Origin: a virus
IMG/VR virus record: IMGVR_UViG_3300028028_000001
Location: 32,001 to 96,000 of that record
Reading direction: 5' to 3' (one strand)
Length of the DNA stretch: 64,000 bases
Positions 17,778-59,518 of the stretch are shown piece by piece (positions within the stretch are counted from its first letter, which is position 1; the number at the start of each line of letters is the position of its first letter). A program made the translations under genes and the position numbers. The notes beneath the pieces were generated by a model. That model saw nothing but the letters and a program-made list of their open reading frames with translations, had not been told where the DNA came from and did not search any database.

Positions 17778-19379
17778 ATGAACCCTCAGACTCTCCTCCT
17801 CGCCTTGACGATGGCCTATTCGTTCTCCGCTGACGGCTCCGTCTCGATGAACAAAGCCGTCACATCCAGCACGATCGCCAGCGCGGTCCCCGAGTCGCTG
17901 GAAATGCAGGCCGCCATCGCGACCTGGAGCGACCGAACCCCGGGCGTCAACACCCTGCTCAAGCTCATCCCGCGCGCCGTCGCCACGAAGCAGGAGCACA
18001 AGTACGTCAGCCTCGACTCCTGGGGCGACGTGGCCCACCAGACCGGCATGGGCACCGAGACCGGCACCCCCGCGAGCCTCCAGTTCTCCTCGACCACCCC
18101 GGTTGTGTGGCTCCAGATCTGCAACCAGGCGACCGACGTCTACTTCATGGCCGAGCTCCAGAAGATGGTCGGCATTGAAGGGACCGTGGATCCCGTCGTC
18201 GTCGCCACCAACGCCACCCTCAAGCGTGAAGCGTGGCTCACCAACCGCAACATGTACCTGCTCGACACCAGTAAGAGCCGCGCAGGCGTCGGCGCCGCCG
18301 GTCGCGTCTACAAGGGCGTCCTTCAGCAGGTTCGCGAGGGCACCGACGGCACCACGGGTTCCTCGACCTTCGGCTCGCACGAGATCGACCTTCGTGGCGC
18401 GGACATCACCTCCGATAACATCCGCACCCAGATCGCCCACATCCTGGAGTACTACGGCATGGCCAACGTGCTCCTGATGCCGCCCACCCCGCGAGGCAAC
18501 CTGGAAAGCTCCCTCGAAGGCGCCAACCGCATCACCATGGGCGGCGTGGACATTCGAACCCACCTTCTGGGCAACTCGATCGCCGGCCTCCAGAGCCAGG
18601 GCAACGTCATGTGGTTCGCCACCGAGCTCGCGCTCAGCGCGAAGAACTCGAAGCCCCGATACACCGCGCCTCCCGCCGGCTGGGCAACCACCACGGTCCC
18701 GACCGTCGTGTCTGCCGTGGTCGCTGGTGGAACCTCGGGCAACGCCTCGCTGTGGGGCGCCTCGGACGATGGCAACATCTACCACGTCGTCACCGAGGTT
18801 GTCAACGAGCTCGAAGGCGCGGGAACCCGTGAGCCTGCCGGCGCCGCCTACAACGCGGTCGCAGTCGGGCAGGAAGTCCGCCTGACCCTCACCCCGGGTT
18901 CCGTGGATGCCGATCGCCTCCGCGTCTACCGTGGCCACGATACCGACGTGAGCCCCGGCGGCACCGCTGGCGCCGTGACTGAGGCTTGGTTCCTCTTCGA
19001 GGTGGCCGCGAACGGCGCGGTTCCCGTCGTGACCTACGACTACAACCAGAGCCTGCCCCGCACCGCCTGGGCCGTCGCGCTCGACATCCAGAGCCCGGTC
19101 GCCGACGCCATGTTCAACCCGAGAGGCAACTCCCTGGGCGCCAACTATGCCGACGCCAACGACGCCGCGATCTCGCAGATCGGCTACCGCGACAACGGTA
19201 TGACCTCGAACGTGAGCTTCGCGCAGCTCGGGCCCGCTCCCATGCGCCTCCAGCTCGCCCCCGTGGCCCTGACCGCCCCGATGGGCCGCCCCGTGATCCT
19301 CCGCGTCGGCGCCCCCGTCGTGCGGATCCCGCAGCGCTGCTTCACCTTCAAGAACGTTCGTGACGTGGTTTACAACTAG
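17778..19379 (+). CDS. Major capsid protein (533 aa)
   Basis: Follows protease and scaffold, and is followed by a terminator. Very high GC3. No specific motif recognised, so the call is positional. Confidence 0.7.
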   Translation: MNPQTLLLALTMAYSFSADGSVSMNKAVTSSTIASAVPESLEMQAAIATWSDRTPGVNTLLKLIPRAVATKQEHKYVSLDSWGDVAHQTGMGTETGTPASLQFSSTTPVVWLQICNQATDVYFMAELQKMVGIEGTVDPVVVATNATLKREAWLTNRNMYLLDTSKSRAGVGAAGRVYKGVLQQVREGTDGTTGSSTFGSHEIDLRGADITSDNIRTQIAHILEYYGMANVLLMPPTPRGNLESSLEGANRITMGGVDIRTHLLGNSIAGLQSQGNVMWFATELALSAKNSKPRYTAPPAGWATTTVPTVVSAVVAGGTSGNASLWGASDDGNIYHVVTEVVNELEGAGTREPAGAAYNAVAVGQEVRLTLTPGSVDADRLRVYRGHDTDVSPGGTAGAVTEAWFLFEVAANGAVPVVTYDYNQSLPRTAWAVALDIQSPVADAMFNPRGNSLGANYADANDAAISQIGYRDNGMTSNVSFAQLGPAPMRLQLAPVALTAPMGRPVILRVGAPVVRIPQRCFTFKNVRDVVYN

Positions 19380-43433: not shown

Positions 43434-44183
43434 TCACTCCTCGCACCCCTCGAAAATGATGGATTCAAGGTGCCCTTCCAGCAGAGGGAAACTCATCCAC
43501 TTGTCCGGATCCTGTCGCAACAGCCGGAGGTCAAGCCAGCAGTTGAAGCGCTCTTCCAAGTTGGCCCGGGTCAACCCCGCGCGTACTTCGGGTTCGATGA
43601 ACCCCTCCGAATCGCTGGTGTCCACGGGTTCGACCACCGGCACGGGCTCCACGGTCGTCTTCTTCTTCGCGACAACGACTCTCCGTCTGACTTCGGGCGC
43701 CCGCGCGAGCTCTTCCAGCCGTCCGGCTTTCTCCGCCGCTCGATAGTGCTTGTGGCACAACCCGCCCTTGTGATCCGGAGTCGAGCAACCCTCGATCCGG
43801 CAAACTCCGGGCGTCGTGGAGTTGCCGATTTTCATCTCGACAACCGGAGCCACGGGCGCGAACTCATCAAGTCGGTTTTCCGCGAGCGCGCGCTGGTAGT
43901 GGCGCTCACAGAGGCCCTTGCGCTTTGCCCCGAATCGGCACCCTTCGACGTTGCACCGGCCATAGACCGGATTGGAAGCCCGGTGCATTTCATCGGGGAT
44001 CTTACGCATCGTGCTCTCCGGGGGTTCGCAGAGACCCGCCTTGATGACCTGCTCTCGGTGTTCTCGGCAAAGGTGGCGCGTTTCAGGGGACCGTAGAGGA
44101 CCCGTGGCGTTGCGATAGATCGTGACGCGCTCGGTTCCGCCGAAAGAGGCGGTGCATCCTGTCACGTCGCAGGGGTGGGTCAT
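43434..44183 (-). CDS. Protein with three CxxGC...(G)LCxxH(Y/R) zinc-ribbon repeats (putative DNA-binding)
   Basis: 'CDVTGC...LCREHR', 'CNVEGC...GLCERHY', 'CRIEGC...GLCHKHY'. AAGGAG RBS before ATG 44183. The longer ORF-track N-terminus overlaps the tRNA. Confidence 0.65.
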   Translation of the reverse strand: MTHPCDVTGCTASFGGTERVTIYRNATGPLRSPETRHLCREHREQVIKAGLCEPPESTMRKIPDEMHRASNPVYGRCNVEGCRFGAKRKGLCERHYQRALAENRLDEFAPVAPVVEMKIGNSTTPGVCRIEGCSTPDHKGGLCHKHYRAAEKAGRLEELARAPEVRRRVVVAKKKTTVEPVPVVEPVDTSDSEGFIEPEVRAGLTRANLEERFNCWLDLRLLRQDPDKWMSFPLLEGHLESIIFEGCEE

Positions 44184-44202: not shown

Positions 44203-44274
44203 TGGACCCGGTGGGAGTCGAACCCACGACATCCTGCTTGCAAGGCAGGCGCTCTCCCGCTGAGCTACGGGCCC
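44203..44274 (-). tRNA. tRNA-Ala (anticodon UGC)
   Basis: Hand-folded cloverleaf: GGGCCCG/CGGGTCC acceptor with G3:U70, anticodon loop CUUGCAA, T-loop TTCGACT, discriminator A. CCA is not encoded. Confidence 0.9.
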
Positions 44275-44282
44275 GGTGGTGG

Positions 44283-44546
44283 TCAGATCCCCGGGTGGGG
44301 ACCCGTGCGCCAGTCGAAGCCGCCGAGCACGGAGTCGAACCACTCGCCCGGGTCGGCTCCCCAGCCGTCTTCATCGTCTTCGTCGCCCGTGTCGTCGCCG
44401 TCGCCCGTGTCCTCGGTTTCGCCGGTGTCAGGATCGGGTTCGATCGGGGAATCCCATCCCGGCGGGTGGAATTCGTCCGGGATGACGCGGATCGTGGGGC
44501 CGTCGAGCGGACTGGCGGCGAGAAGGGCGAGAAGTAGGAATCTCAT
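44283..44546 (-). CDS. Secreted acidic protein (signal peptide)
   Basis: 'MRFLLLALLAASPLDG' followed by a D/E/G/T-rich region. ATGA overlap upstream. Confidence 0.55.
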   Translation of the reverse strand: MRFLLLALLAASPLDGPTIRVIPDEFHPPGWDSPIEPDPDTGETEDTGDGDDTGDEDDEDGWGADPGEWFDSVLGGFDWRTGPHPGI

Positions 44547-44704
44547 GGTTTCTCCTGTTTTGGTGGTTCAGTCTTGTGGGTAGTAACATGTTGAGCAGAA
44601 AGGGCAAGGCCTCGCGCGATTCGGGCGCGGCGGTAGAAGAATCGGAAGAGGTCAGCGAAAAGCCAGCCGAGAAGGAAACCGGCGATGAGAAGGGCGTAGT
44701 TCAT
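44543..44704 (-). CDS. Small single-pass membrane protein (53 aa)
   Basis: 'MNYALLIAGFLLGWLFADLF'. ATGA overlap with the radical-SAM stop. The RBS lies inside the 23-bp repeat. Confidence 0.5.
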   Translation of the reverse strand: MNYALLIAGFLLGWLFADLFRFFYRRARIARGLALSAQHVTTHKTEPPKQEKP

Positions 44705-45546
44705 CTCTCGATCTCCTGATTGGGTTCGCCGTCCAGAGGGCCGGCCAGTTTCGCGATCAATGCCGGTCGGAACCATCGCCGTTGAAAAGCGCGCCATTCT
44801 GGTTTGAATTGCCCGCCGTCATCTCGCCAGAGCATCGCGGCGGGAAAGATCCCAGTCTCCAGGACCGCTCGAAGCCGCGTTTCTGCTTTCTCGAAGGTGT
44901 CGCTCGGAAACCCGATCAGGACGTAGCAGCGGACCCGATGGCCCGCAAAGTGCTGTCCGGCTTCCTTGAGCACCTCCGCTGCCCGCTTGACGTGATCCCA
45001 ATCGTCAGGGGTGTCGTAGGCCAAGAAGATGCTTTCTGGGTGTAGTTTGACGAGAGCAGCGGCAACGTCGCGCGTTATCCGTTTCGGTTCGAGCCCGCCT
45101 GTGAATTGCGGACGTTTCGGTTGCCGAGCGAGCATGGCGAATACGTCGGTAATGTGCCCATCGGAGCAAGCTAATAGGTTGTCGTCGAGCACGTTCCAAC
45201 CATCATGAATCGAGAGTTCTCGGATTGTGCCTTCGCGCTTCGGTACAGAGCAGAACCAGCAGCGATTTGGGCACCCGCGAGACGTGATCGTGTAGCCGTG
45301 TCGGAGGTACTGGCCGGACTCGAAGTCACCTCCGGGCAGGCCAAGAGCAGGGCCGCCTACCTGGACAGGCGCAATCCTGGCCCACGAATCCGCAAGCATC
45401 CGAGCGACCGGGAGATCCCAGGTAAACGCCACCGATACCCTAACCTCTGTGATTCCGTCTGGAATGAACAGCGGGGGATCTCCGATGAACGTCAGCGGAT
45501 CGGTTGGCGTTGCTTGGGTTCGCCGTGGGAAAACGCGCGCAATCAT
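44701..45546 (-). CDS. Radical SAM protein
   Basis: 'SRGCPNRCWFCSV' is a CX3CX2C motif. Start set to ATG 45546 (ATGA overlap, AGGAGA RBS). Confidence 0.85.
   Translation of the reverse strand: MIARVFPRRTQATPTDPLTFIGDPPLFIPDGITEVRVSVAFTWDLPVARMLADSWARIAPVQVGGPALGLPGGDFESGQYLRHGYTITSRGCPNRCWFCSVPKREGTIRELSIHDGWNVLDDNLLACSDGHITDVFAMLARQPKRPQFTGGLEPKRITRDVAAALVKLHPESIFLAYDTPDDWDHVKRAAEVLKEAGQHFAGHRVRCYVLIGFPSDTFEKAETRLRAVLETGIFPAAMLWRDDGGQFKPEWRAFQRRWFRPALIAKLAGPLDGEPNQEIER
44711..44733 (-). repeat. 23-bp direct repeat, copy 1
   Basis: ATCTCCTGATTGGGTTCGCCGTC (+ strand), identical to 45553-45575. Encodes 'DGEPNQEI' and provides the AGGAGA RBS of the next gene. Confidence 0.95.
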
Positions 45547-46505
45547 GGAGCTATCTCCTGATTGGGTTCGCCGTCGCCAGGAAACTCCCGCCATTCCCGA
45601 CCGTCGATAATTGCCCCGGTGTTGTGCTTTCCGAGGCGAGAAAGAATAGTCACCGGGAAAGCGTCTTCATCGCGGGCCCGCATGAAGTCGATACCCATGT
45701 TCAGAACGCGCCCCTTCTTGTCCATGCAGGCATCCGTCCTGGAAATATGGGTACTGGCCTTGCTGACCCAACGCTGATAGTTCCACATTTCATCGAATAC
45801 CGGCATCCCGTTACACATATCCACCATTCCGGGCCCGTATTCCCCCCACTGTTTAAAAAAATACGGAACCCCAGCGGCCAAACACTGATCGCGCAACCCA
45901 CGAACCCAATCCGGATGGGTAGGCCGCGCGTTCGGGCCCGACTCACCGCCAGCGATAACCCAATGGATCCCGTCCAGATTCAACTGGATAGGCCCAAGAA
46001 GAGGCTCGCAGGACAGGAAGCGAACGGGCGCTTTGACCTGTCGAAGGAACGGATACCGCTCATCGAAGCGCTGTTGATTCTCGGCAGTGACCCCGGCCCA
46101 GGCGTTGATCGGCCACCAGTAGGACCGATTCCAGGCCAGCATCGCCTCGGGTCGCTTCGTCAGGAGTTGCCAGATCAGCCCGCGCTTGGTTTCCTCGATG
46201 AGTTCCCAGAGTCGTCGCCGGGCCATGACGAGTTCGGGAAGTTCCTCGAACACGTCGCACGTCGAGCCGCAAAAGACCTTGACCCGCGTGCCTTCCTTCT
46301 CGGCCTTTCGACTCCAGGCGATCGGCTGCTTCCAGTAGGAGTCGCTGGCCATCACCCGAGGATGATCGCCCCATTCCGCGTGGCGTCTCATGCCGGGCGG
46401 TAGGGTTTCGGCGTAGCAGTTTTTGCAGGCCTCGGAGACCTTTCGGCATCCTGACCATGGATTGAAGGTATTTCCGGTCCACGCTATGTTGGAGTTTTCG
46501 CTCAT
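45543..46505 (-). CDS. DUF5131 (phage Gp37/Gp68) family protein
   Basis: 'NIAWTGNTFNPWSGCRKVSEACKNCYAE' is the family's N-terminal signature. 320 aa. Confidence 0.85.
   Translation of the reverse strand: MSENSNIAWTGNTFNPWSGCRKVSEACKNCYAETLPPGMRRHAEWGDHPRVMASDSYWKQPIAWSRKAEKEGTRVKVFCGSTCDVFEELPELVMARRRLWELIEETKRGLIWQLLTKRPEAMLAWNRSYWWPINAWAGVTAENQQRFDERYPFLRQVKAPVRFLSCEPLLGPIQLNLDGIHWVIAGGESGPNARPTHPDWVRGLRDQCLAAGVPYFFKQWGEYGPGMVDMCNGMPVFDEMWNYQRWVSKASTHISRTDACMDKKGRVLNMGIDFMRARDEDAFPVTILSRLGKHNTGAIIDGREWREFPGDGEPNQEIAP
45553..45575 (-). repeat. 23-bp direct repeat, copy 2
   Basis: Perfect match to 44711-44733, 842 nt apart. Together they bracket the radical-SAM gene. Confidence 0.95.
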
Positions 46506-48551: not shown

Positions 48552-48929
48552 CTACTCCTTCACGATCGCACCGGATTCCCGGAGCATCCGGGCGGCGGCG
48601 GCGAGGGTGACCGTGGAACCGCTCCGATCGCATCGCAGTTCCGACTGCCCGATGGTGGTTGGCGCGGCTTCGACGAGGTTCTTGGCCTCCATGAGACCGA
48701 TGCCGGTCAACTCGCGGATCGCCTTGATGACGTTGATCTTGTTCTCGCCCCATGAGACGAGGAGGATCGCGTCGCCGGGAATGGGCACGTCCATCTTGGA
48801 GAGAGTCGCGGTCTTCTCTGCGATGGCGCCGCGGAGTATCTCCGCTCGCGTCAACGCATCGCGGCCGATCCGCTCCAGTTCCTCCGCTCTCGCGCGGAGT
48901 ACTTCGATTTCCTGTTTCAATCGTTCCAT
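48552..48929 (-). CDS. Protein with a coiled-coil N-terminus and a ribosomal protein L7/L12 C-terminal domain
   Basis: 'NKINVIKAIRELTGIGLMEAKNLVEAAP...LRESGAIVKE' aligns by eye with E. coli bL12 '[28 protein letters not shown]...LEEAGAEVEVK'. Confidence 0.8.
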   Translation of the reverse strand: MERLKQEIEVLRARAEELERIGRDALTRAEILRGAIAEKTATLSKMDVPIPGDAILLVSWGENKINVIKAIRELTGIGLMEAKNLVEAAPTTIGQSELRCDRSGSTVTLAAAARMLRESGAIVKE

Positions 48930-51696: not shown

Positions 51697-52077
51697 TCAC
51701 GGTTTGGGAATGAAGAAAGGATCATCCCATGGCGGATAGGAAACGACAGGAATCCCCTTCGCCCGCGCAAACGCGACTTCCGTTTCCAACCCGGCGGATA
51801 CCTCCATCGGCGCGCATCTCCAAACGGCATCGCAGACTGCCACAAGCGCAAGGTCCCGAGAGATGTAAAAGCCCTGTGGATCCTTGGGATTCGTGAGTCC
51901 CGCTTCGTGCATCAGGTGATGGTGGATCCATGAGACCACCACGAACCCGCTATTTGTTGCGAGCGCGCAGAAGGCCAGGTATCGGCGGATATTGCGCTCC
52001 TTGTTGCCCCATTCCGGGGAGCCGTCGCCTTGTAGGGGGTGGGCTATGTAGATTAGGGGGCCGGGGTGGGGGTTCAT
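51697..52077 (-). CDS. Nucleoside 2-deoxyribosyltransferase-like protein (DUF1937/DUF4406-like)
   Basis: 'LIYIAHPLQGD...NIRRYLAFCA...CDAVWRCAPMEVSAGLETEVAFARAKGIPVV'. ATGA overlap at 52077. Confidence 0.65.
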   Translation of the reverse strand: MNPHPGPLIYIAHPLQGDGSPEWGNKERNIRRYLAFCALATNSGFVVVSWIHHHLMHEAGLTNPKDPQGFYISRDLALVAVCDAVWRCAPMEVSAGLETEVAFARAKGIPVVSYPPWDDPFFIPKP

Positions 52078-53102
52078 CTTGCGTGCTCCCATTCAATCCA
52101 TTGTTTCAGCACGAGCCCGACAGCATGAGCGACGGGAGGCACTACGGCGTTCCCGAGCGCACAGATTTTCGCCGCGTGGACTCTGGCGGGGGTCCATCCG
52201 GACGGCTTGACGCTTCCGTCCATCCAATCGGGAATCCCATGAACGCCTCGCACCAGGGGATCGAAAGGCGATGCCCCGGACCACGGAGCCGCCTCATCTC
52301 CCGCCCGACACTCGCGGTCCCCTGCTCCGTCCCCGCTTTCCAGTCTGCCGACATGAGCGTCGGTAGCAGTTCGGATCGCGGAGTCGAGCCAATCCGCAAA
52401 GCGGGGAGCAGGCTCATGTGATGCAGATCCCCTCCCGCCCCGCATCGTTCCCCATCGCTCGCTCGAAGCGTCGGCAGCAGCCCGCGCTGCGCCTTCGTGG
52501 TTCGCCCTTCCTTGGGGCGTCGGGATCCGCCCATCTCCGATGCCGTCAGGGTCGGTAGCAGTTCCGTCCGCAGGTCGCGCCCACGTTGCGGCGCAGCGGG
52601 CCTGATTCCCCCGGTCCCCATCGCTGAGCACAGAGTCGGCAAGAGCGAGAACAAACCCTCTTGACCGCTCGTGTCTGGCTCCCACGTCACAGGCCCGCAC
52701 GCGCAGGACAGGACTGGTCCGATAGCCGAGATCTGCAAGTCCGCCCCGCACCACGGGCACCCACGTCTTCTTGGCATTCCAGACGTTCTCGACGACGACA
52801 GCGCGAGGTCTGGCTTCTCGGATGACTCGAAGCATCTCGAACCAGAGACCCGATCGGGCTCCGTCGAAGCCGGCTTTTCGGCCAGCGGTGGACAAGTCCT
52901 GGCAAGGGAATCCGCCGCAAATAACATCTGCTGAGACATCTCGAAGCTCCTTGATGTCCGGGTAAATCGGACAGTTCCAATGCGCTCGAAGGACCGAGCG
53001 ACAAAATGCATCGGCCTCGCATTGCCAGGCGACGGGGCCGAATCCCGCGAGTTCAAGGCCCATTTCGAGCCCGCCTATGCCGCTGAACAGGGAGCCGATC
53101 AT
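52074..53102 (-). CDS. DNA (cytosine-5)-methyltransferase
   Basis: 'FSGIGGLEMG' (motif I), 'GGFPCQDLS' (IV), 'VVVENV' (VI), 'ALGNAVVPPVA' (X). Confidence 0.9.
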   Translation of the reverse strand: MIGSLFSGIGGLEMGLELAGFGPVAWQCEADAFCRSVLRAHWNCPIYPDIKELRDVSADVICGGFPCQDLSTAGRKAGFDGARSGLWFEMLRVIREARPRAVVVENVWNAKKTWVPVVRGGLADLGYRTSPVLRVRACDVGARHERSRGFVLALADSVLSDGDRGNQARCAATWARPADGTATDPDGIGDGRIPTPQGRANHEGAARAAADASSERWGTMRGGRGSASHEPAPRFADWLDSAIRTATDAHVGRLESGDGAGDRECRAGDEAAPWSGASPFDPLVRGVHGIPDWMDGSVKPSGWTPARVHAAKICALGNAVVPPVAHAVGLVLKQWIEWEHAR

Positions 53103-54211: not shown

Positions 54212-54663
54212 GGGTTCACCGCGAGCCATTCAGAGACGAGGGCTTCGGGGTTGTCACGAAGGGCGAGCCAGTAACTGCGTTTCGCATCGGGCAAGAAATG
54301 TTCGATATCTTGCTCGTACCATCCCTCACCCATCCACTTTTCTTGCCCATCAGGAAAGCGCACATAGATAGCTGTGTTGCTAAAGTGATCCGGCCCTTTG
54401 TACCGGTGGCTCCATCGTTTGTCCCACTCCATCCCACTCCTCACCAGCCAATCGCGGGTCTCGGGGCGGGTTGGGTCGGAGAGGAGGCGGGTGGAGGCGT
54501 CTATCCAGTTTTTCCGAATATCCTCCTCTACATCTTCCCATTCCCGGGCGTACTTTCGAGCCACATCGCAAGTATCGATCAAAGCTTGAAAGAACTCGAC
54601 GGCTCGTCTTTCCGCCTCTTCGCGGACCTTGGGGTGATTCAGGAGTCGGGGGTCGGGGGTCAT
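54208..54663 (-). CDS. Hypothetical protein
   Basis: ATGA overlaps at both ends. Coding-like composition. Confidence 0.6.
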   Translation of the reverse strand: MTPDPRLLNHPKVREEAERRAVEFFQALIDTCDVARKYAREWEDVEEDIRKNWIDASTRLLSDPTRPETRDWLVRSGMEWDKRWSHRYKGPDHFSNTAIYVRFPDGQEKWMGEGWYEQDIEHFLPDAKRSYWLALRDNPEALVSEWLAVNP

Positions 54664-55130
54664 TTTCCAATCTCCTCATCCGGGTCCATGCCATGTTCTC
54701 GGCAAAGTTCTTGCGCCGTCGTCGAACCGGTTCCAAGGGCGTTCCGGACGTGCGCCCACCTTGGCCCCCTCTTTGTCTTTCGGCCGGCGTTATGGACCGC
54801 TCCCCATAGAAGTTTCCTATCCACTTCCTCGATCTTCCGGAGCCTCCTCACCTCCTCAATGAGCGCTCGGAGGTCTTCGGGGGCGTGGGCGATGAGCGAG
54901 GCGTTTGCATAGCTTTCCGATTTTGACCGGTCAACCGAACCGTTCGGAATGATCGCCCAATGTTGCGGCGGGTTCGGATCAAGTAGATAGGTTCCAAGGA
55001 TGCACTTGGTTGGTACTTCGGCGATTTCGTACCCGTCGGATCCGATAACCGAGTCGCATTCGCCGGTCCACGGCCCCCGAGTCGCGGCCTTGAGCCGGTC
55101 TTCGATGGCCTGGAGTTGTTCGGGGGTCAT
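54660..55130 (-). CDS. Ead/Ea22-like protein, paralog 1
   Basis: 'RLKAATRGPWTGE...GSDGYEIAEV...ANASLIAHAPEDLRALIEEVRRLRK'. Confidence 0.7.
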   Translation of the reverse strand: MTPEQLQAIEDRLKAATRGPWTGECDSVIGSDGYEIAEVPTKCILGTYLLDPNPPQHWAIIPNGSVDRSKSESYANASLIAHAPEDLRALIEEVRRLRKIEEVDRKLLWGAVHNAGRKTKRGPRWAHVRNALGTGSTTAQELCREHGMDPDEEIGK

Positions 55131-57955: not shown

Positions 57956-58653
57956 TTGTATTTCTTCACTGCTTCCATAGCAAGAAGGGCGTATTCAAAC
58001 GGTCCGTATTTCTCGGGCTTGTAGTACCAACCATCGTCACGCCTGTATACCGTGTGGGCGCGGCCATCGGACCAAACCCAATCGGAATAGGTCCACCCCT
58101 CCAGCCCCTTCCTTCCGGTTTCTGCGTCAAGGATGGCCTGGAGGCGGGCGATTTTATCGAGGTCCTCCTGATTGGATATTCGGTACCCGGAAGGCCCTGC
58201 CGAGCACGGATATAGGGCGTTTACTGCCCTTCTCACCTCATACTCCTGTGCCATGGCGCGTTCATAATTCTGTGCAACCACCCTCAGTTCGACTGATTCT
58301 ATCCCGGTGACAAAAAGCTTGTGTTCATAAGCCCATCGGACGACACCTTCCCCGGAAATGTCAACGCGGGGATCCGATTTTCCCTCACAGTCGGCCGCAG
58401 TCGTGGAGTCGAGAGTCAATTCCTCGGAAATGGGGATATAACTATGGAGATTCAAGGCTTCGGTGACCATGGCGTATAGCGCAGGATCACGGGAGACAAT
58501 GCGCCGCATGTTGAGGCTCACTACCCAACTGACCGTTTTCGCCATGGCCATTATCGGAGGTAGCAGAATATTCAGTATCCGTTGGTTGTACGTACACTCT
58601 ACGTCATCCCGTTCGTTTTCGATCGCTCGAATGGTGTCAAGATCGAAGGTCAT
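57952..58653 (-). CDS. Hypothetical protein
   Basis: ATGA overlaps at both ends. 233 aa. Confidence 0.6.
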   Translation of the reverse strand: MTFDLDTIRAIENERDDVECTYNQRILNILLPPIMAMAKTVSWVVSLNMRRIVSRDPALYAMVTEALNLHSYIPISEELTLDSTTAADCEGKSDPRVDISGEGVVRWAYEHKLFVTGIESVELRVVAQNYERAMAQEYEVRRAVNALYPCSAGPSGYRISNQEDLDKIARLQAILDAETGRKGLEGWTYSDWVWSDGRAHTVYRRDDGWYYKPEKYGPFEYALLAMEAVKKYK

Positions 58654-59054
58654 TTTTCACTCTCCAGTTCATCCAATCTATCTCGAAGTTCTCGGAAGCA
58701 ATAGCAATCCAGCGTTGCATTATCGTTGTCCACAATCCATTGACGGGCAACCTCCTCAACTTTCCGAAGCCTCTTGATTTCCTCGATGCACGCCCGGAGG
58801 TCTTCGGGGGCGTGGGCGATGAGTTGTGTATTCGCATCGCTCTCCGATTCGGGCCTTTCAATCCAACCGTTTGGCGTGTTAGCCCAATGGTGCGGAGGGT
58901 TCGGATCGGATAGATAGGAACCGGAAATACACTTTCCTTCTATCACATCTGCGATTTCGTACCCGTCTGAGCCTATTACGTAGTCACGATCTCCAGCCCA
59001 CGGTCCCGGAGTAGCCTCTGCAAGCCGTTTTTCGATGGGTTCAAGGTCGAACAT
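58650..59054 (-). CDS. Ead/Ea22-like protein, paralog 2
   Basis: 'RLAEATPGPWAGD...GSDGYEIADV...ANTQLIAHAPEDLRACIEEIKRLRK'. Start moved to the internal ATG. Confidence 0.7.
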   Translation of the reverse strand: MFDLEPIEKRLAEATPGPWAGDRDYVIGSDGYEIADVIEGKCISGSYLSDPNPPHHWANTPNGWIERPESESDANTQLIAHAPEDLRACIEEIKRLRKVEEVARQWIVDNDNATLDCYCFRELRDRLDELESEK

Positions 59055-59065
59055 TGGGGCTCCTA

Positions 59066-59518
59066 TCAAAATGGCACGTCTTCCGTTTCGAACGGGCATG
59101 GATTGGCTTCGGCGTTCGAACGGATTGCGTAGCAGGATGGTGCGGTGCAATACCGAACATGCTCTGTGAAGGTATGGCCGTTGATGGTGGCCTCTGGTTC
59201 CTCTTTTTCGCCGAATATTGATCTTGTTTCGGCGTCCGTTGTGAGTCGTTCTACGGTCGCGATACTGTCCGCGTGTTTATTGCGCGATGAGCAGGGGTGA
59301 TCGACGGCGGCCTGCCGGCAAATGCAGCACCCTGGGTTGTCGCAGACCAGGTATCCCGATTTGAAGACGTGCCCGTTGAAGTGCCACTCTGGAGCGGCGG
59401 GCGCCACACTCATGGGCTCCAACACCCTTGCCGTCCAGAAGACCCGAGCCCCCTGAACACGATCCATGTCGATCCGCTCCCGCCGGCACCACTCAATAGC
59501 GGCATCTTCCATGGTCAT
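59066..59518 (-). CDS. Hypothetical Cys-rich protein ending in an SSB-like acidic tail
   Basis: C-terminus '...PFETEDVPF'; SSB ends '...DDDPVPF'. ATG 59518 forms an ATGA overlap with the upstream small ORF (the track start at 59527 is GTG). Confidence 0.55.
   Translation of the reverse strand: MTMEDAAIEWCRRERIDMDRVQGARVFWTARVLEPMSVAPAAPEWHFNGHVFKSGYLVCDNPGCCICRQAAVDHPCSSRNKHADSIATVERLTTDAETRSIFGEKEEPEATINGHTFTEHVRYCTAPSCYAIRSNAEANPCPFETEDVPF

Follow-up and report, generated by a model that had tools for sequence, protein, structure and literature searches.

Gene organization of the locus

The window analysed here is a 64,000-nt stretch of the IMG/VR virus record IMGVR_UViG_3300028028_000001. 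[quoted passage not shown] Both open reading frames, with their sizes, minus-strand coordinates, ATGA overlap, CPNRCWFC motif and Cys-rich motif, are present in the sequence as the original prediction had described them. An earlier start codon would extend the rSAM ORF to 297 residues, but this was rejected because the homologues begin at the same MIARVFPRR sequence, which identifies the ATG at 45546 as the true start. A 53-aa ORF follows downstream and shares an ATGA overlap with the rSAM gene. Its product has a hydrophobic N-terminal stretch, judged by eye to be a likely membrane segment.

The 4-nt overlap is present at 19 of the 30 junctions of this operon. It is therefore the default junction there, and the overlap between the DUF5131 and rSAM genes is not special. 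The genomic surroundings agree in part with the earlier description: ThyX (PF02511) was found and a DUF7768 protein is encoded in the same context, whereas the two DNA methyltransferases proposed before reduce to a single C5 DNA methylase (52074-53102).

Table 1. Features of the DUF5131/rSAM locus (positions in the 64,000-nt window)
Feature	Position	Strand	Basis
Gene of the DUF5131 protein (Gp37/Gp68 family; 320 aa), listed as a subgroup of the radical SAM superfamily	45543..46505	-	PF07505, phrog_2045, PADLOC, AF2, RadicalSAM.org
rSAM gene, 281 aa, large uncurated rSAM family	44701..45546	-	Pfam Radical_SAM, phrog_9298, AF2, Foldseek
ATGA overlap of DUF5131 stop and rSAM start	45543..45546	-	read from sequence
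Codons of DUF5131 three-Cys motif C20-x6-C27-x2-C30	46416..46448	-	sequence and 32 homologues
Codons of rSAM CPNRCWFC (C92-x3-C96-x2-C99), canonical cluster motif	45250..45273	-	sequence and 31 homologues
53-aa ORF downstream of rSAM, ATGA overlap with rSAM	44543..44704	-	sequence
Repeat copy 1, GACGGCGAACCCAATCAGGAGAT, perfect 23 nt; last DUF5131 codons and rSAM Shine-Dalgarno	45553..45575	-	
Repeat copy 2, perfect 23 nt; last rSAM codons and Shine-Dalgarno of the next small gene	44711..44733	-	
Degenerate third copy (15/16 nt), repeat family D4; rSAM 5' end at conserved PRRTQA codons	45511..45526	-	

Sequence and structural features of the DUF5131 protein

The DUF5131 protein matches the Pfam family PF07505 over the entire profile (positions 1-243 of 243) with E = 9e-76 and 255 bits against a cut-off of 28.9. 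It also matches phrog_2045 (E = 2e-82) and, strongly, the PADLOC models PDC-M41B and PDC-M30B (E = 1e-57 and 2e-55), and its nearest relative is just 53% identical. The Cys-rich segment GCRKVSEACKNCYAE (residues 19-33) gives the three-Cys motif listed in Table 1, in which C20, C27 and C30, together with Y31, are invariant across 32 homologues. The same alignment shows an invariant GGESG, a candidate SAM-binding motif of the GGE type.

In the AF2 model (pLDDT 90.5), the predicted fold of this protein is TIM-barrel-like. Foldseek produced weak matches to UVDE, SPL, TYW1 and viperin, with solved rSAM structures at E ≥ 1.7e-3 and TM 0.3-0.4, and a PDB sequence search with the DUF5131 profile gave no match. 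DUF5131 is included as Megacluster-5-2 in the RadicalSAM.org list of radical SAM superfamily subgroups. In the literature, the term DUF5131 was found solely in this subgroup table, and PF07505 was found nowhere.

The full-length match and the invariant three-Cys and GGESG motifs are shared with the PF07505 family, and the early-region position is common to the window gene and its Burkholderia (phiE125 and phi1026b), mycobacteriophage and Gordonia phage counterparts. The window protein differs from the family in an 11-residue tail, DGEPNQEIAP, derived from a local 23-nt repeat. Within DUF5131/Gp37-Gp68, a family widespread in phages, it is an unexceptional member.

TcmP (three-Cys-motif partner protein) is probably the usual bacterial partner of DUF5131. 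An NCBIfam scan of ten neighbouring ORFs revealed no TcmP-like partner in the window, and the setting is a phage early operon rather than the bacterial defence island of DUF5131-TcmP and of PDC-M30 and PDC-M41. In the literature, TcmP, PDC-M30 and PDC-M41 appear just as table entries. Two further systems, an rSAM module of Thermus phage and the defence system Ophion, were considered and rejected, as their families differ from those of the window genes.

Sequence and structural features of the rSAM protein

The rSAM protein scores 29.9 bits against Pfam Radical_SAM (PF04055), barely over the gathering cut-off of 29.5 bits, and matches phrog_9298 with E = 7e-24; it has no match in PADLOC. The sequence CPNRCWFC occupies residues 92-99, and its three Cys residues are invariant in 31 homologues, which have no conserved Cys ahead of C92 for an auxiliary cluster. 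Cys127 and His131 are invariant as well.

This protein belongs to a very large family (> 6281 homologues) for which no dedicated curated model exists. Its members have a length of ~270 residues, retain a mean identity of ~59% across phyla, and originate from phages, prophage-like regions and genome assemblies of mostly uncultured, largely anaerobic lineages. A survey of fusion partners in the family found no informative domain, the sole fusion being an intein with an HNH domain. In one family member, an intein lies within ~30 residues of the cluster motif.

The AF2 model of the rSAM protein (pLDDT 86) predicts a Rossmann-like mini-domain of ~65 residues ahead of the CX3CX2C motif. The top Foldseek matches were MgmA (9ccb), RimO (4jc0) and AprD4 (6fd2), with E = 2e-6 to 9e-5 and TM ~0.5. 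A PDB sequence search with the rSAM profile matched only ~30 residues around the cluster motif. NCBIfam gave only weak matches, to rSAM_ladder_B12 and RimO (E ~1e-3), and a fold search of BFVD retrieved just distant phage proteins of the COG1032 type, all longer than 500 aa.

Class-B-like and methylthiotransferase-type rSAM enzymes such as MgmA, RimO and AprD4 likewise have an N-terminal Rossmann-like domain followed by the radical SAM core, and resemble the window protein around the cluster motif (SRGCPxxCxFC). However, identity to these enzymes is 12-16%, the window protein has no TRAM or other C-terminal domain, and it is shorter (~270 aa versus 420-450 aa). At ~65 residues, its N-terminal domain is about half of what is presumably the usual size. 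Assignment as RimO/MiaB or as a B12-dependent class B enzyme was rejected because these have a complete N-terminal domain, with an auxiliary-cluster Cys triad or a cobalamin-binding domain, and a TRAM or equivalent domain at the C-terminus, and because the match is confined to ~30 residues around the motif.

Both products had been proposed to be Fe-S or metal proteins. The superfamily listing, the invariant Cys motifs and GGESG make it very probable that they are Fe-S/SAM enzymes, and the earlier statement that neither protein has a defined function still holds.

Genomic linkage of the DUF5131 and rSAM genes

The original prediction treated the two genes as a translationally coupled functional pair. 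As a two-enzyme module, a heterodimer or enzymes catalysing consecutive steps, they would carry out a protective modification of DNA, RNA or nucleotides. The locus itself agrees with this proposal in that the genes adjoin, are co-oriented and overlap, both proteins are assigned to the radical SAM superfamily, and a DNA methylase and ThyX are encoded in the same operon. Linkage was scored as the presence of DUF5131 within 5 kb of rSAM in distinct locus clusters from IMG/VR and GTDB and evaluated with the Fisher test.

DUF5131 was present within 5 kb in 13 of 118 rSAM clusters, compared with 3 of 71 control loci anchored on DnaB (p = 0.18), a control that represents one gene family and is unmatched for host or habitat. 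Thus, ~89% of distinct rSAM loci have no DUF5131 in this range, and direct adjacency was found in five of the 118 clusters. A roughly five-fold enrichment emerged in IMG/VR alone, where DUF5131 was near rSAM in 9 of 50 clusters (18%; control, 4%; odds ratio ~5, p = 0.027). In the reverse direction, rSAM was found in 0/22 and 1/80 IMG/VR loci anchored on DUF5131 (the single case being a weak match), or in ~1 of 99 clusters, leaving ~99% of DUF5131 loci without it. Among isolate phages, none of the 13 rSAM records, which are the full set, shared an accession with the 40 DUF5131 matches listed out of 166. The significant co-occurrence expected from the original prediction was essentially not observed in the pooled data.

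The closest relatives of each gene do not adjoin the other. The nearest rSAM relative, in locus L354, is 84% identical. The ORF ahead of it is truncated by the contig start and has a C-terminus that does not resemble those of DUF5131 proteins. The closest metagenomic relatives of the DUF5131 protein (47-53% identity) had rSAM in 0 of 3 contexts. Homologues of rSAM at ~59% identity adjoin PrimPol or ResIII helicase genes and have no DUF5131 beside them. Across 80 IMG/VR loci, the immediate neighbours of rSAM are highly variable. DUF5131 is among the neighbouring genes that recur more often, and a DNA methyltransferase is near rSAM in 13 of 50 clusters. With the same overlap at most junctions of the operon and no adjacency in the closest relatives of either gene, translational coupling into a functional pair was not borne out.

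Where the two genes are neighbours, they are always on the same strand and DUF5131 is usually upstream, immediately so in five loci (L025, L053, L060, L277 and L317). This recurring adjacency involves at least two DUF5131 subfamilies, which favours the module. Speaking against it, L353 has the two genes in the opposite order, and the distance between them ranges from 0 to ~3 kb. There may be a loose functional affinity between DUF5131 and rSAM in a minority of phages.

Paired mobile rSAM genes do exist as a concept: the radical SAM mobile pair, formed by protein A (TIGR04471) and a partner B, likewise consists of two adjoining radical-SAM-type genes on a mobile element. Residues 112-219 of the DUF5131 protein weakly match TIGR04471 with E = 6e-10, but at 38.9 bits against a cut-off of 355 bits, and the window rSAM had no match to pair-B-type NCBIfam models at E ≤ 0.01. 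Identity with the mobile pair A/B was rejected on these scores and because the pairing is not conserved. The DUF5131 and rSAM genes are not conserved as a two-gene module, and their position side by side here is probably fortuitous. With the repeat described below also indicating separate acquisition, we consider a protective two-enzyme module unlikely.

A direct repeat brackets the rSAM gene

Two perfect copies of a 23-nt sequence are present in the 64 kb of the window, where sequence shuffles indicate that none would be expected by chance. They lie at a distance of 842 nt, bracketing precisely the rSAM ORF. Each includes an AGGAG Shine-Dalgarno sequence and is separated by 6 nt from the ATGA that follows, while its coding part adds the tail DGEPNQEI to both the DUF5131 and the rSAM protein, a tail that is absent from the homologues of each.

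Junction repeats of 12-15 nt also flank rSAM in four other lineages, with sequences that differ by lineage. Counting the window gene, such flanking repeats were found for 5 of ~52 distinct rSAM genes. None of 83 DnaB genes had them, nor did any of the 71 left after dereplication, and among other genes the count was 3 of 337 (p = 0.012 and 0.0015, respectively). The exact 23-mer had no match in viral or metagenome contigs, and hence no relative without the rSAM insertion was found.

Short repeated junction or regulatory sequences are known to shuffle phage genes, as in the lambdoid linker sequences, morons and T4-type PeSL cassettes. Like these, the window rSAM is a lone accessory ORF between direct repeats at gene junctions. 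In contrast, the window repeat consists of coding sequence plus a Shine-Dalgarno sequence, not of a promoter or stem-loop, and it is lineage-specific. The repeat and the foreign tails suggest that rSAM was separately inserted as a single-gene cassette.

In principle, a direct repeat can also represent a shared regulatory or translational element. Applied to this locus, the repeat would be a translational-coupling element or operator, or an sRNA or protein site, that co-regulates rSAM and the small downstream gene, in agreement with the equal spacing of both copies to the following ATGA (6 nt) and their AGGAG sequence. This reading appears very improbable: perfect identity over 23 nt, with seven sense codons and a non-homologous tail on two unrelated proteins, goes far beyond the needs of a ribosome-binding site, the 64 kb hold just two copies and the exact 23-mer is unmatched in viral and metagenome collections, while other phages flank rSAM with repeats of different, lineage-specific sequence.

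Discussion

The window likely carries two accessory genes that are independent of each other and belong to the early operon (replication and DNA metabolism) of a divergent tailed phage, the product of each being a radical SAM superfamily enzyme that works on its own. In the scenario that we propose, the rSAM gene would have come in behind DUF5131 as a single-gene cassette, duplicating the junction, that is, the last codons and the Shine-Dalgarno sequence. Each enzyme would reductively cleave SAM at a [4Fe-4S] cluster, acting alone and on its own substrate. Because of the genomic company of the two genes, this substrate would most likely be related to nucleic acids or nucleotides.

Thymidine hypermodification and 7-deazaguanine pathways both include known phage rSAM enzymes, and one homologue locus (L003) also encodes QueC and ThyX. 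It is nevertheless highly doubtful that the window rSAM is one of the known types (QueE, the NrdG activase, a viperin-like or a thymidine hypermodification enzyme) with DUF5131 as an accessory step, given its few weak NCBIfam matches, its class-B/methylthiotransferase-type structural neighbours (a phage QueE-like protein in BFVD ranks 42nd, with E = 0.36) and the absence of QueC, QueD, FolE, DpdA, 5-hmdU kinase and NrdD by Pfam and NCBIfam among the window genes examined. Identification as QueE, NrdG or viperin was rejected, with neither NCBIfam nor fold support.

Beyond the reading of two independent genes, we tentatively propose, as a single and possible rather than probable combination, that the family of the 281-aa rSAM protein acts alone on a universal substrate, a nucleic acid or nucleotide, in an as yet undescribed reaction for modification or anti-defence, that it spreads as a single-gene cassette with a junction duplication of 10-23 nt, and that it may cooperate with DUF5131 in the minority of loci where the latter is directly upstream.

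If real, a modification module would have implied a novel radical chemistry carried out on phage DNA by two enzymes; the evidence favours studying DUF5131 and rSAM singly. These findings alone settle no long-standing question. DUF5131 is a very common protein of phages and defence islands, and the rSAM family is abundant and highly conserved in phages and prophage-like regions, without a curated model. The rSAM locus is a clear example of a lone accessory gene between duplicated junctions and shows how such genes move among phage operons.

Genomic setting of the DUF5131 and radical SAM genes

The window belongs to a divergent tailed-phage genome. Its structural module is very divergent, and comparison of ten large plus-strand ORFs (window 1-42000) with PHROGs gave no match except for the major head protein. 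A long minus-strand operon encodes ThyX, a C5 DNA methylase, a DUF7768 protein, an SF2 helicase, an L7/L12-domain protein, an HTH protein, a beta-clamp homologue and a RecU-like protein. The genes for the Gp37/Gp68-family protein (DUF5131) and the radical SAM protein (rSAM) were confirmed on the minus strand with the sizes and ATGA overlap of the original prediction. ThyX was found in the same block as described, together with one of the two claimed DNA methyltransferases, the C5 DNA methylase.

The two genes are co-oriented, and their stop and start codons overlap, which is the case at most of the operon's junctions. Since 19 of the 30 consecutive junctions on this contig carry 4-nt overlaps according to the gene calls, the ATGA represents the local default and no sign of a special partnership. 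This start of rSAM is correct because its homologues begin at the identical N-terminal sequence MIARVFPRR, and a 297-aa version of the ORF was rejected as an over-extension on the same grounds.

Several other features of the early operon were observed. The tRNA-Ala gene lies about 430 nt downstream of rSAM and overlaps with the next gene at the 5' end of its longest ORF. The protein with a ribosomal L7/L12 C-terminal domain is unusual to find in the early operon of a phage, and the Cys-rich-repeat protein has no Pfam or NCBIfam match. Two similar stretches of approximately 280 nt indicate paralogous small genes.

Features of the window and of homologous loci
Feature	Position	Strand	Remarks
Major head protein	17778-19379	plus	
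Cys-rich-repeat protein	43434-44183	minus	249 aa; three copies of C..EGC....KGLC..HY
tRNA-Ala	44203-44274	minus	anticodon TGC
rSAM gene	44701-45546	minus	281 aa; CPNRCWFC = residues 92-99; Pfam Radical_SAM, phrog_9298
23-nt repeat, two copies	45553-45575 and 44711-44733		842 nt apart
Third repeat copy	45511-45526		15/16 nt; inside 5' end of rSAM
ATGA	45543-45546	minus	DUF5131 stop and rSAM start
DUF5131 gene	45543-46505	minus	320 aa; Pfam PF07505, phrog_2045
L7/L12-domain protein	48552-48929	minus	125 aa; PF00542
Similar stretches	54823-55108 and 58750-59038		73-75% identical; 3.9 kb apart; ORFs 54660-55130 and 58650-59150
DUF5131 gene, locus L111	4001-5026		50% identical to that of the window
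ORFs around rSAM, locus L354	1-1023		shared 'ATFYA' segment
Junction repeat, L077			15 nt
Junction repeat, L013/L014			15 nt
Junction repeat, L074			13 nt; inside imperfect repeat of about 30 nt
Junction repeat, L011			12 nt; part of duplicated small gene

Sequence and structural analysis of the two proteins

Alignments revealed conserved motifs of the cluster- and SAM-binding type in both proteins. The DUF5131 gene of the window is an ordinary member of its family, with a Pfam match spanning the whole profile (E = 9e-76) and additional matches to the PADLOC candidate-defence components PDC-M41B and PDC-M30B. Alignment with 31 homologues showed that the Cys-rich stretch (C20-x6-C27-x2-C30), Y31, C79 and G186-G187-E188-S189-G190 are invariant. 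RadicalSAM.org lists DUF5131 as the radical SAM superfamily subgroup Megacluster-5-2, which also holds spore photoproduct lyase and MJ0683-like proteins. The AlphaFold model is confident (pLDDT 90.5), and Foldseek found no close solved relative of it, the best matches being weak (E >= 1.7e-3, TM 0.3-0.4) and mixed (UVDE, AprD4, TigE, spore photoproduct lyase, TYW1, biotin synthase and viperin). PDB sequences likewise yielded no match in a profile search.

The Pfam Radical_SAM score of rSAM is barely over the threshold (29.9 vs 29.5 bits), and the protein matches the PHROG annotated as 'radical SAM domain protein' with E = 7e-24; no curated NCBIfam model matches it better than E of about 1e-3. 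It is a member of a very large phage family without a curated model, comprising more than 6281 proteins at E <= 1e-5 and 205 clusters at 50% identity (homologues with E <= 1e-30). The top 120 homologues are 53-84% identical to the window protein, and almost all homologues are unnamed or annotated as 'hypothetical protein'. The Cys triad of the cluster motif, C127, H131, a Phe-Thr-Gly-Gly-Leu motif and D178 are among the residues invariant in the aligned homologues. In GTDB genomes (80 loci), the family occurs mainly in uncultured and often anaerobic lineages, including Synergistales, Oscillospiraceae, Rikenellaceae, Treponema, Desulfosporosinus, Dehalococcoidia, Aminicenantes and Planctomycetota, a bias which would fit an oxygen-sensitive enzyme. 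An intein with an HNH endonuclease domain interrupts one family representative (P0123, 550 aa), the intein beginning no more than about 30 residues from the CxxxCxxC cluster motif.

The AlphaFold model of rSAM (pLDDT 86) has a Rossmann-like N-terminal domain of ~65 residues followed by the radical SAM core. Its top structural matches are MgmA (9ccb), RimO (4jc0) and AprD4 (6fd2), with E values of 2e-6 to 9e-5 and TM of about 0.5. These matches make rSAM a miniaturised protein related to the class-B/methylthiotransferase branch, with no conserved Cys N-terminal to C92 in the alignment that could hold an auxiliary cluster. Roles like those of QueE, NrdG or viperin, or in thymidine hypermodification, were not supported for the phage rSAM by profile or fold comparisons.

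Co-occurrence of DUF5131 and rSAM

Among isolate phages, 166 records contain DUF5131 versus only 13 with even a distant rSAM relative, and no accession was shared between the complete set of 13 rSAM records and the 40 DUF5131 records (of 166) compared with it. None of the 22 IMG/VR loci closest to the DUF5131 of the window has rSAM within 4 kb, and one of 80 further DUF5131 loci has a weak match (47 bits). The genes around three of the nearest metagenomic DUF5131 relatives (47-53% identity) are unrelated, and one of these relatives is located between portal and capsid genes. A position between the portal and major capsid genes, as at L111, shows how freely DUF5131 relocates.

Conversely, rSAM homologues with 59% identity lack a nearby DUF5131 and adjoin PrimPol or ResIII helicase genes, and the immediate neighbours vary strongly across 80 IMG/VR loci (50 clusters at 90% identity). 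The recurrent neighbours in a BLAST-based count are DNA methyltransferases (13/50), DUF5131 (8/50), PAPS-reductase-domain proteins (5/50) and DnaB (5/50). A large human-gut group of phages (L034-L052 and others) has a block of fixed order encoding an N6/N4 DNA methylase, a C5 methylase (590 aa), a 280-aa NPPF-motif protein, an 81-aa ORF, rSAM and a PAPS-reductase-domain protein; in L065, L081 and L082, rSAM is likewise flanked by PAPS-reductase genes, in other arrangements.

A more sensitive HMM scan placed DUF5131 near rSAM in 9 of the 50 clusters, immediately upstream in three of them. In a control of 80 IMG/VR loci anchored on DnaB helicases from the same kind of phages, DUF5131 was present within 5 kb in 3/71 clusters (odds ratio about 5, p = 0.027, IMG/VR only). 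With the 80 GTDB loci added, the dereplicated counts were 13/118 (5 adjacent) versus 3/71, with p = 0.18. The DUF5131 genes near rSAM represent at least two subfamilies and are separated from it by 0 to about 3 kb; the order is reversed in L353. In L354, which has the closest known relative of rSAM (84% identical), the upstream ORF, cut by the contig start, ends ...TATGLLISWATNPRHRK and shows no likeness to DUF5131 C-termini.

Thus, accessory genes of both families are common in the early regions of phages. They are sometimes found together, perhaps a little above chance frequency, and neither needs the other. The gene pair and the family memberships of the original prediction stand, but the proposed functional module lacks a conserved pairing, with essentially no significant co-occurrence of the two families.

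Direct repeats flanking rSAM

Two identical copies of a 23-nt direct repeat, GACGGCGAACCCAATCAGGAGAT, enclose precisely the rSAM ORF; by chance, no such repeat would be expected. Each copy comprises the 3'-terminal codons of the ORF before it and an AGGAG ribosome-binding site 6 nt ahead of the next ATGA. Consequently, two unrelated proteins share the C-terminal sequence DGEPNQEI, a tail absent from homologues of either. The junction is duplicated, and the simplest reading of the repeat is an insertion with junction duplication, in which the rSAM ORF would have entered between DUF5131 and a small downstream ORF. Likewise, cassette insertion is the simplest reading of the sequence for the juxtaposition of the two genes. 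A search of viral and metagenome contigs found no match to the exact 23-mer, and hence no pre-insertion relative to compare.

Lineage-specific junction repeats of 11-15 nt flank rSAM at other loci (L077, L013/L014, L074, L011 and L028). Repeats of at least 12 nt flank 5 of some 52 distinct rSAM genes and 4/115 DUF5131 genes, versus 0/83 DnaB genes (0/71 dereplicated; p = 0.012 for rSAM) and 3/337 other genes of the same loci (p = 0.0015 for rSAM). Phage accessory genes are known to shuffle as mosaics via junctions, and the rSAM repeats fit this behaviour. Such repeats argue for a separate acquisition of DUF5131 and rSAM. In L354, the ORFs on both sides of rSAM resemble each other in one segment and the downstream ORF begins with the same ATGATCGCC (M-I-A) as rSAM; this pattern suggests a further duplication, of a junction or a gene, around the cassette.

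Possible functions

Each protein would bind a [4Fe-4S] cluster and generate a 5'-deoxyadenosyl radical, probably acting alone. Substrates related to nucleic acids or nucleotides are a speculative proposal for both, based for rSAM on the replication genes and DNA methylases that surround it, and for DUF5131 on its RadicalSAM.org grouping with spore photoproduct lyase and its occurrence in candidate defence systems. The very high conservation of rSAM across phages of unrelated hosts suggests a universal substrate. The lasting value of this locus lies in an uncharacterised radical SAM family and a tidy insertion scar.
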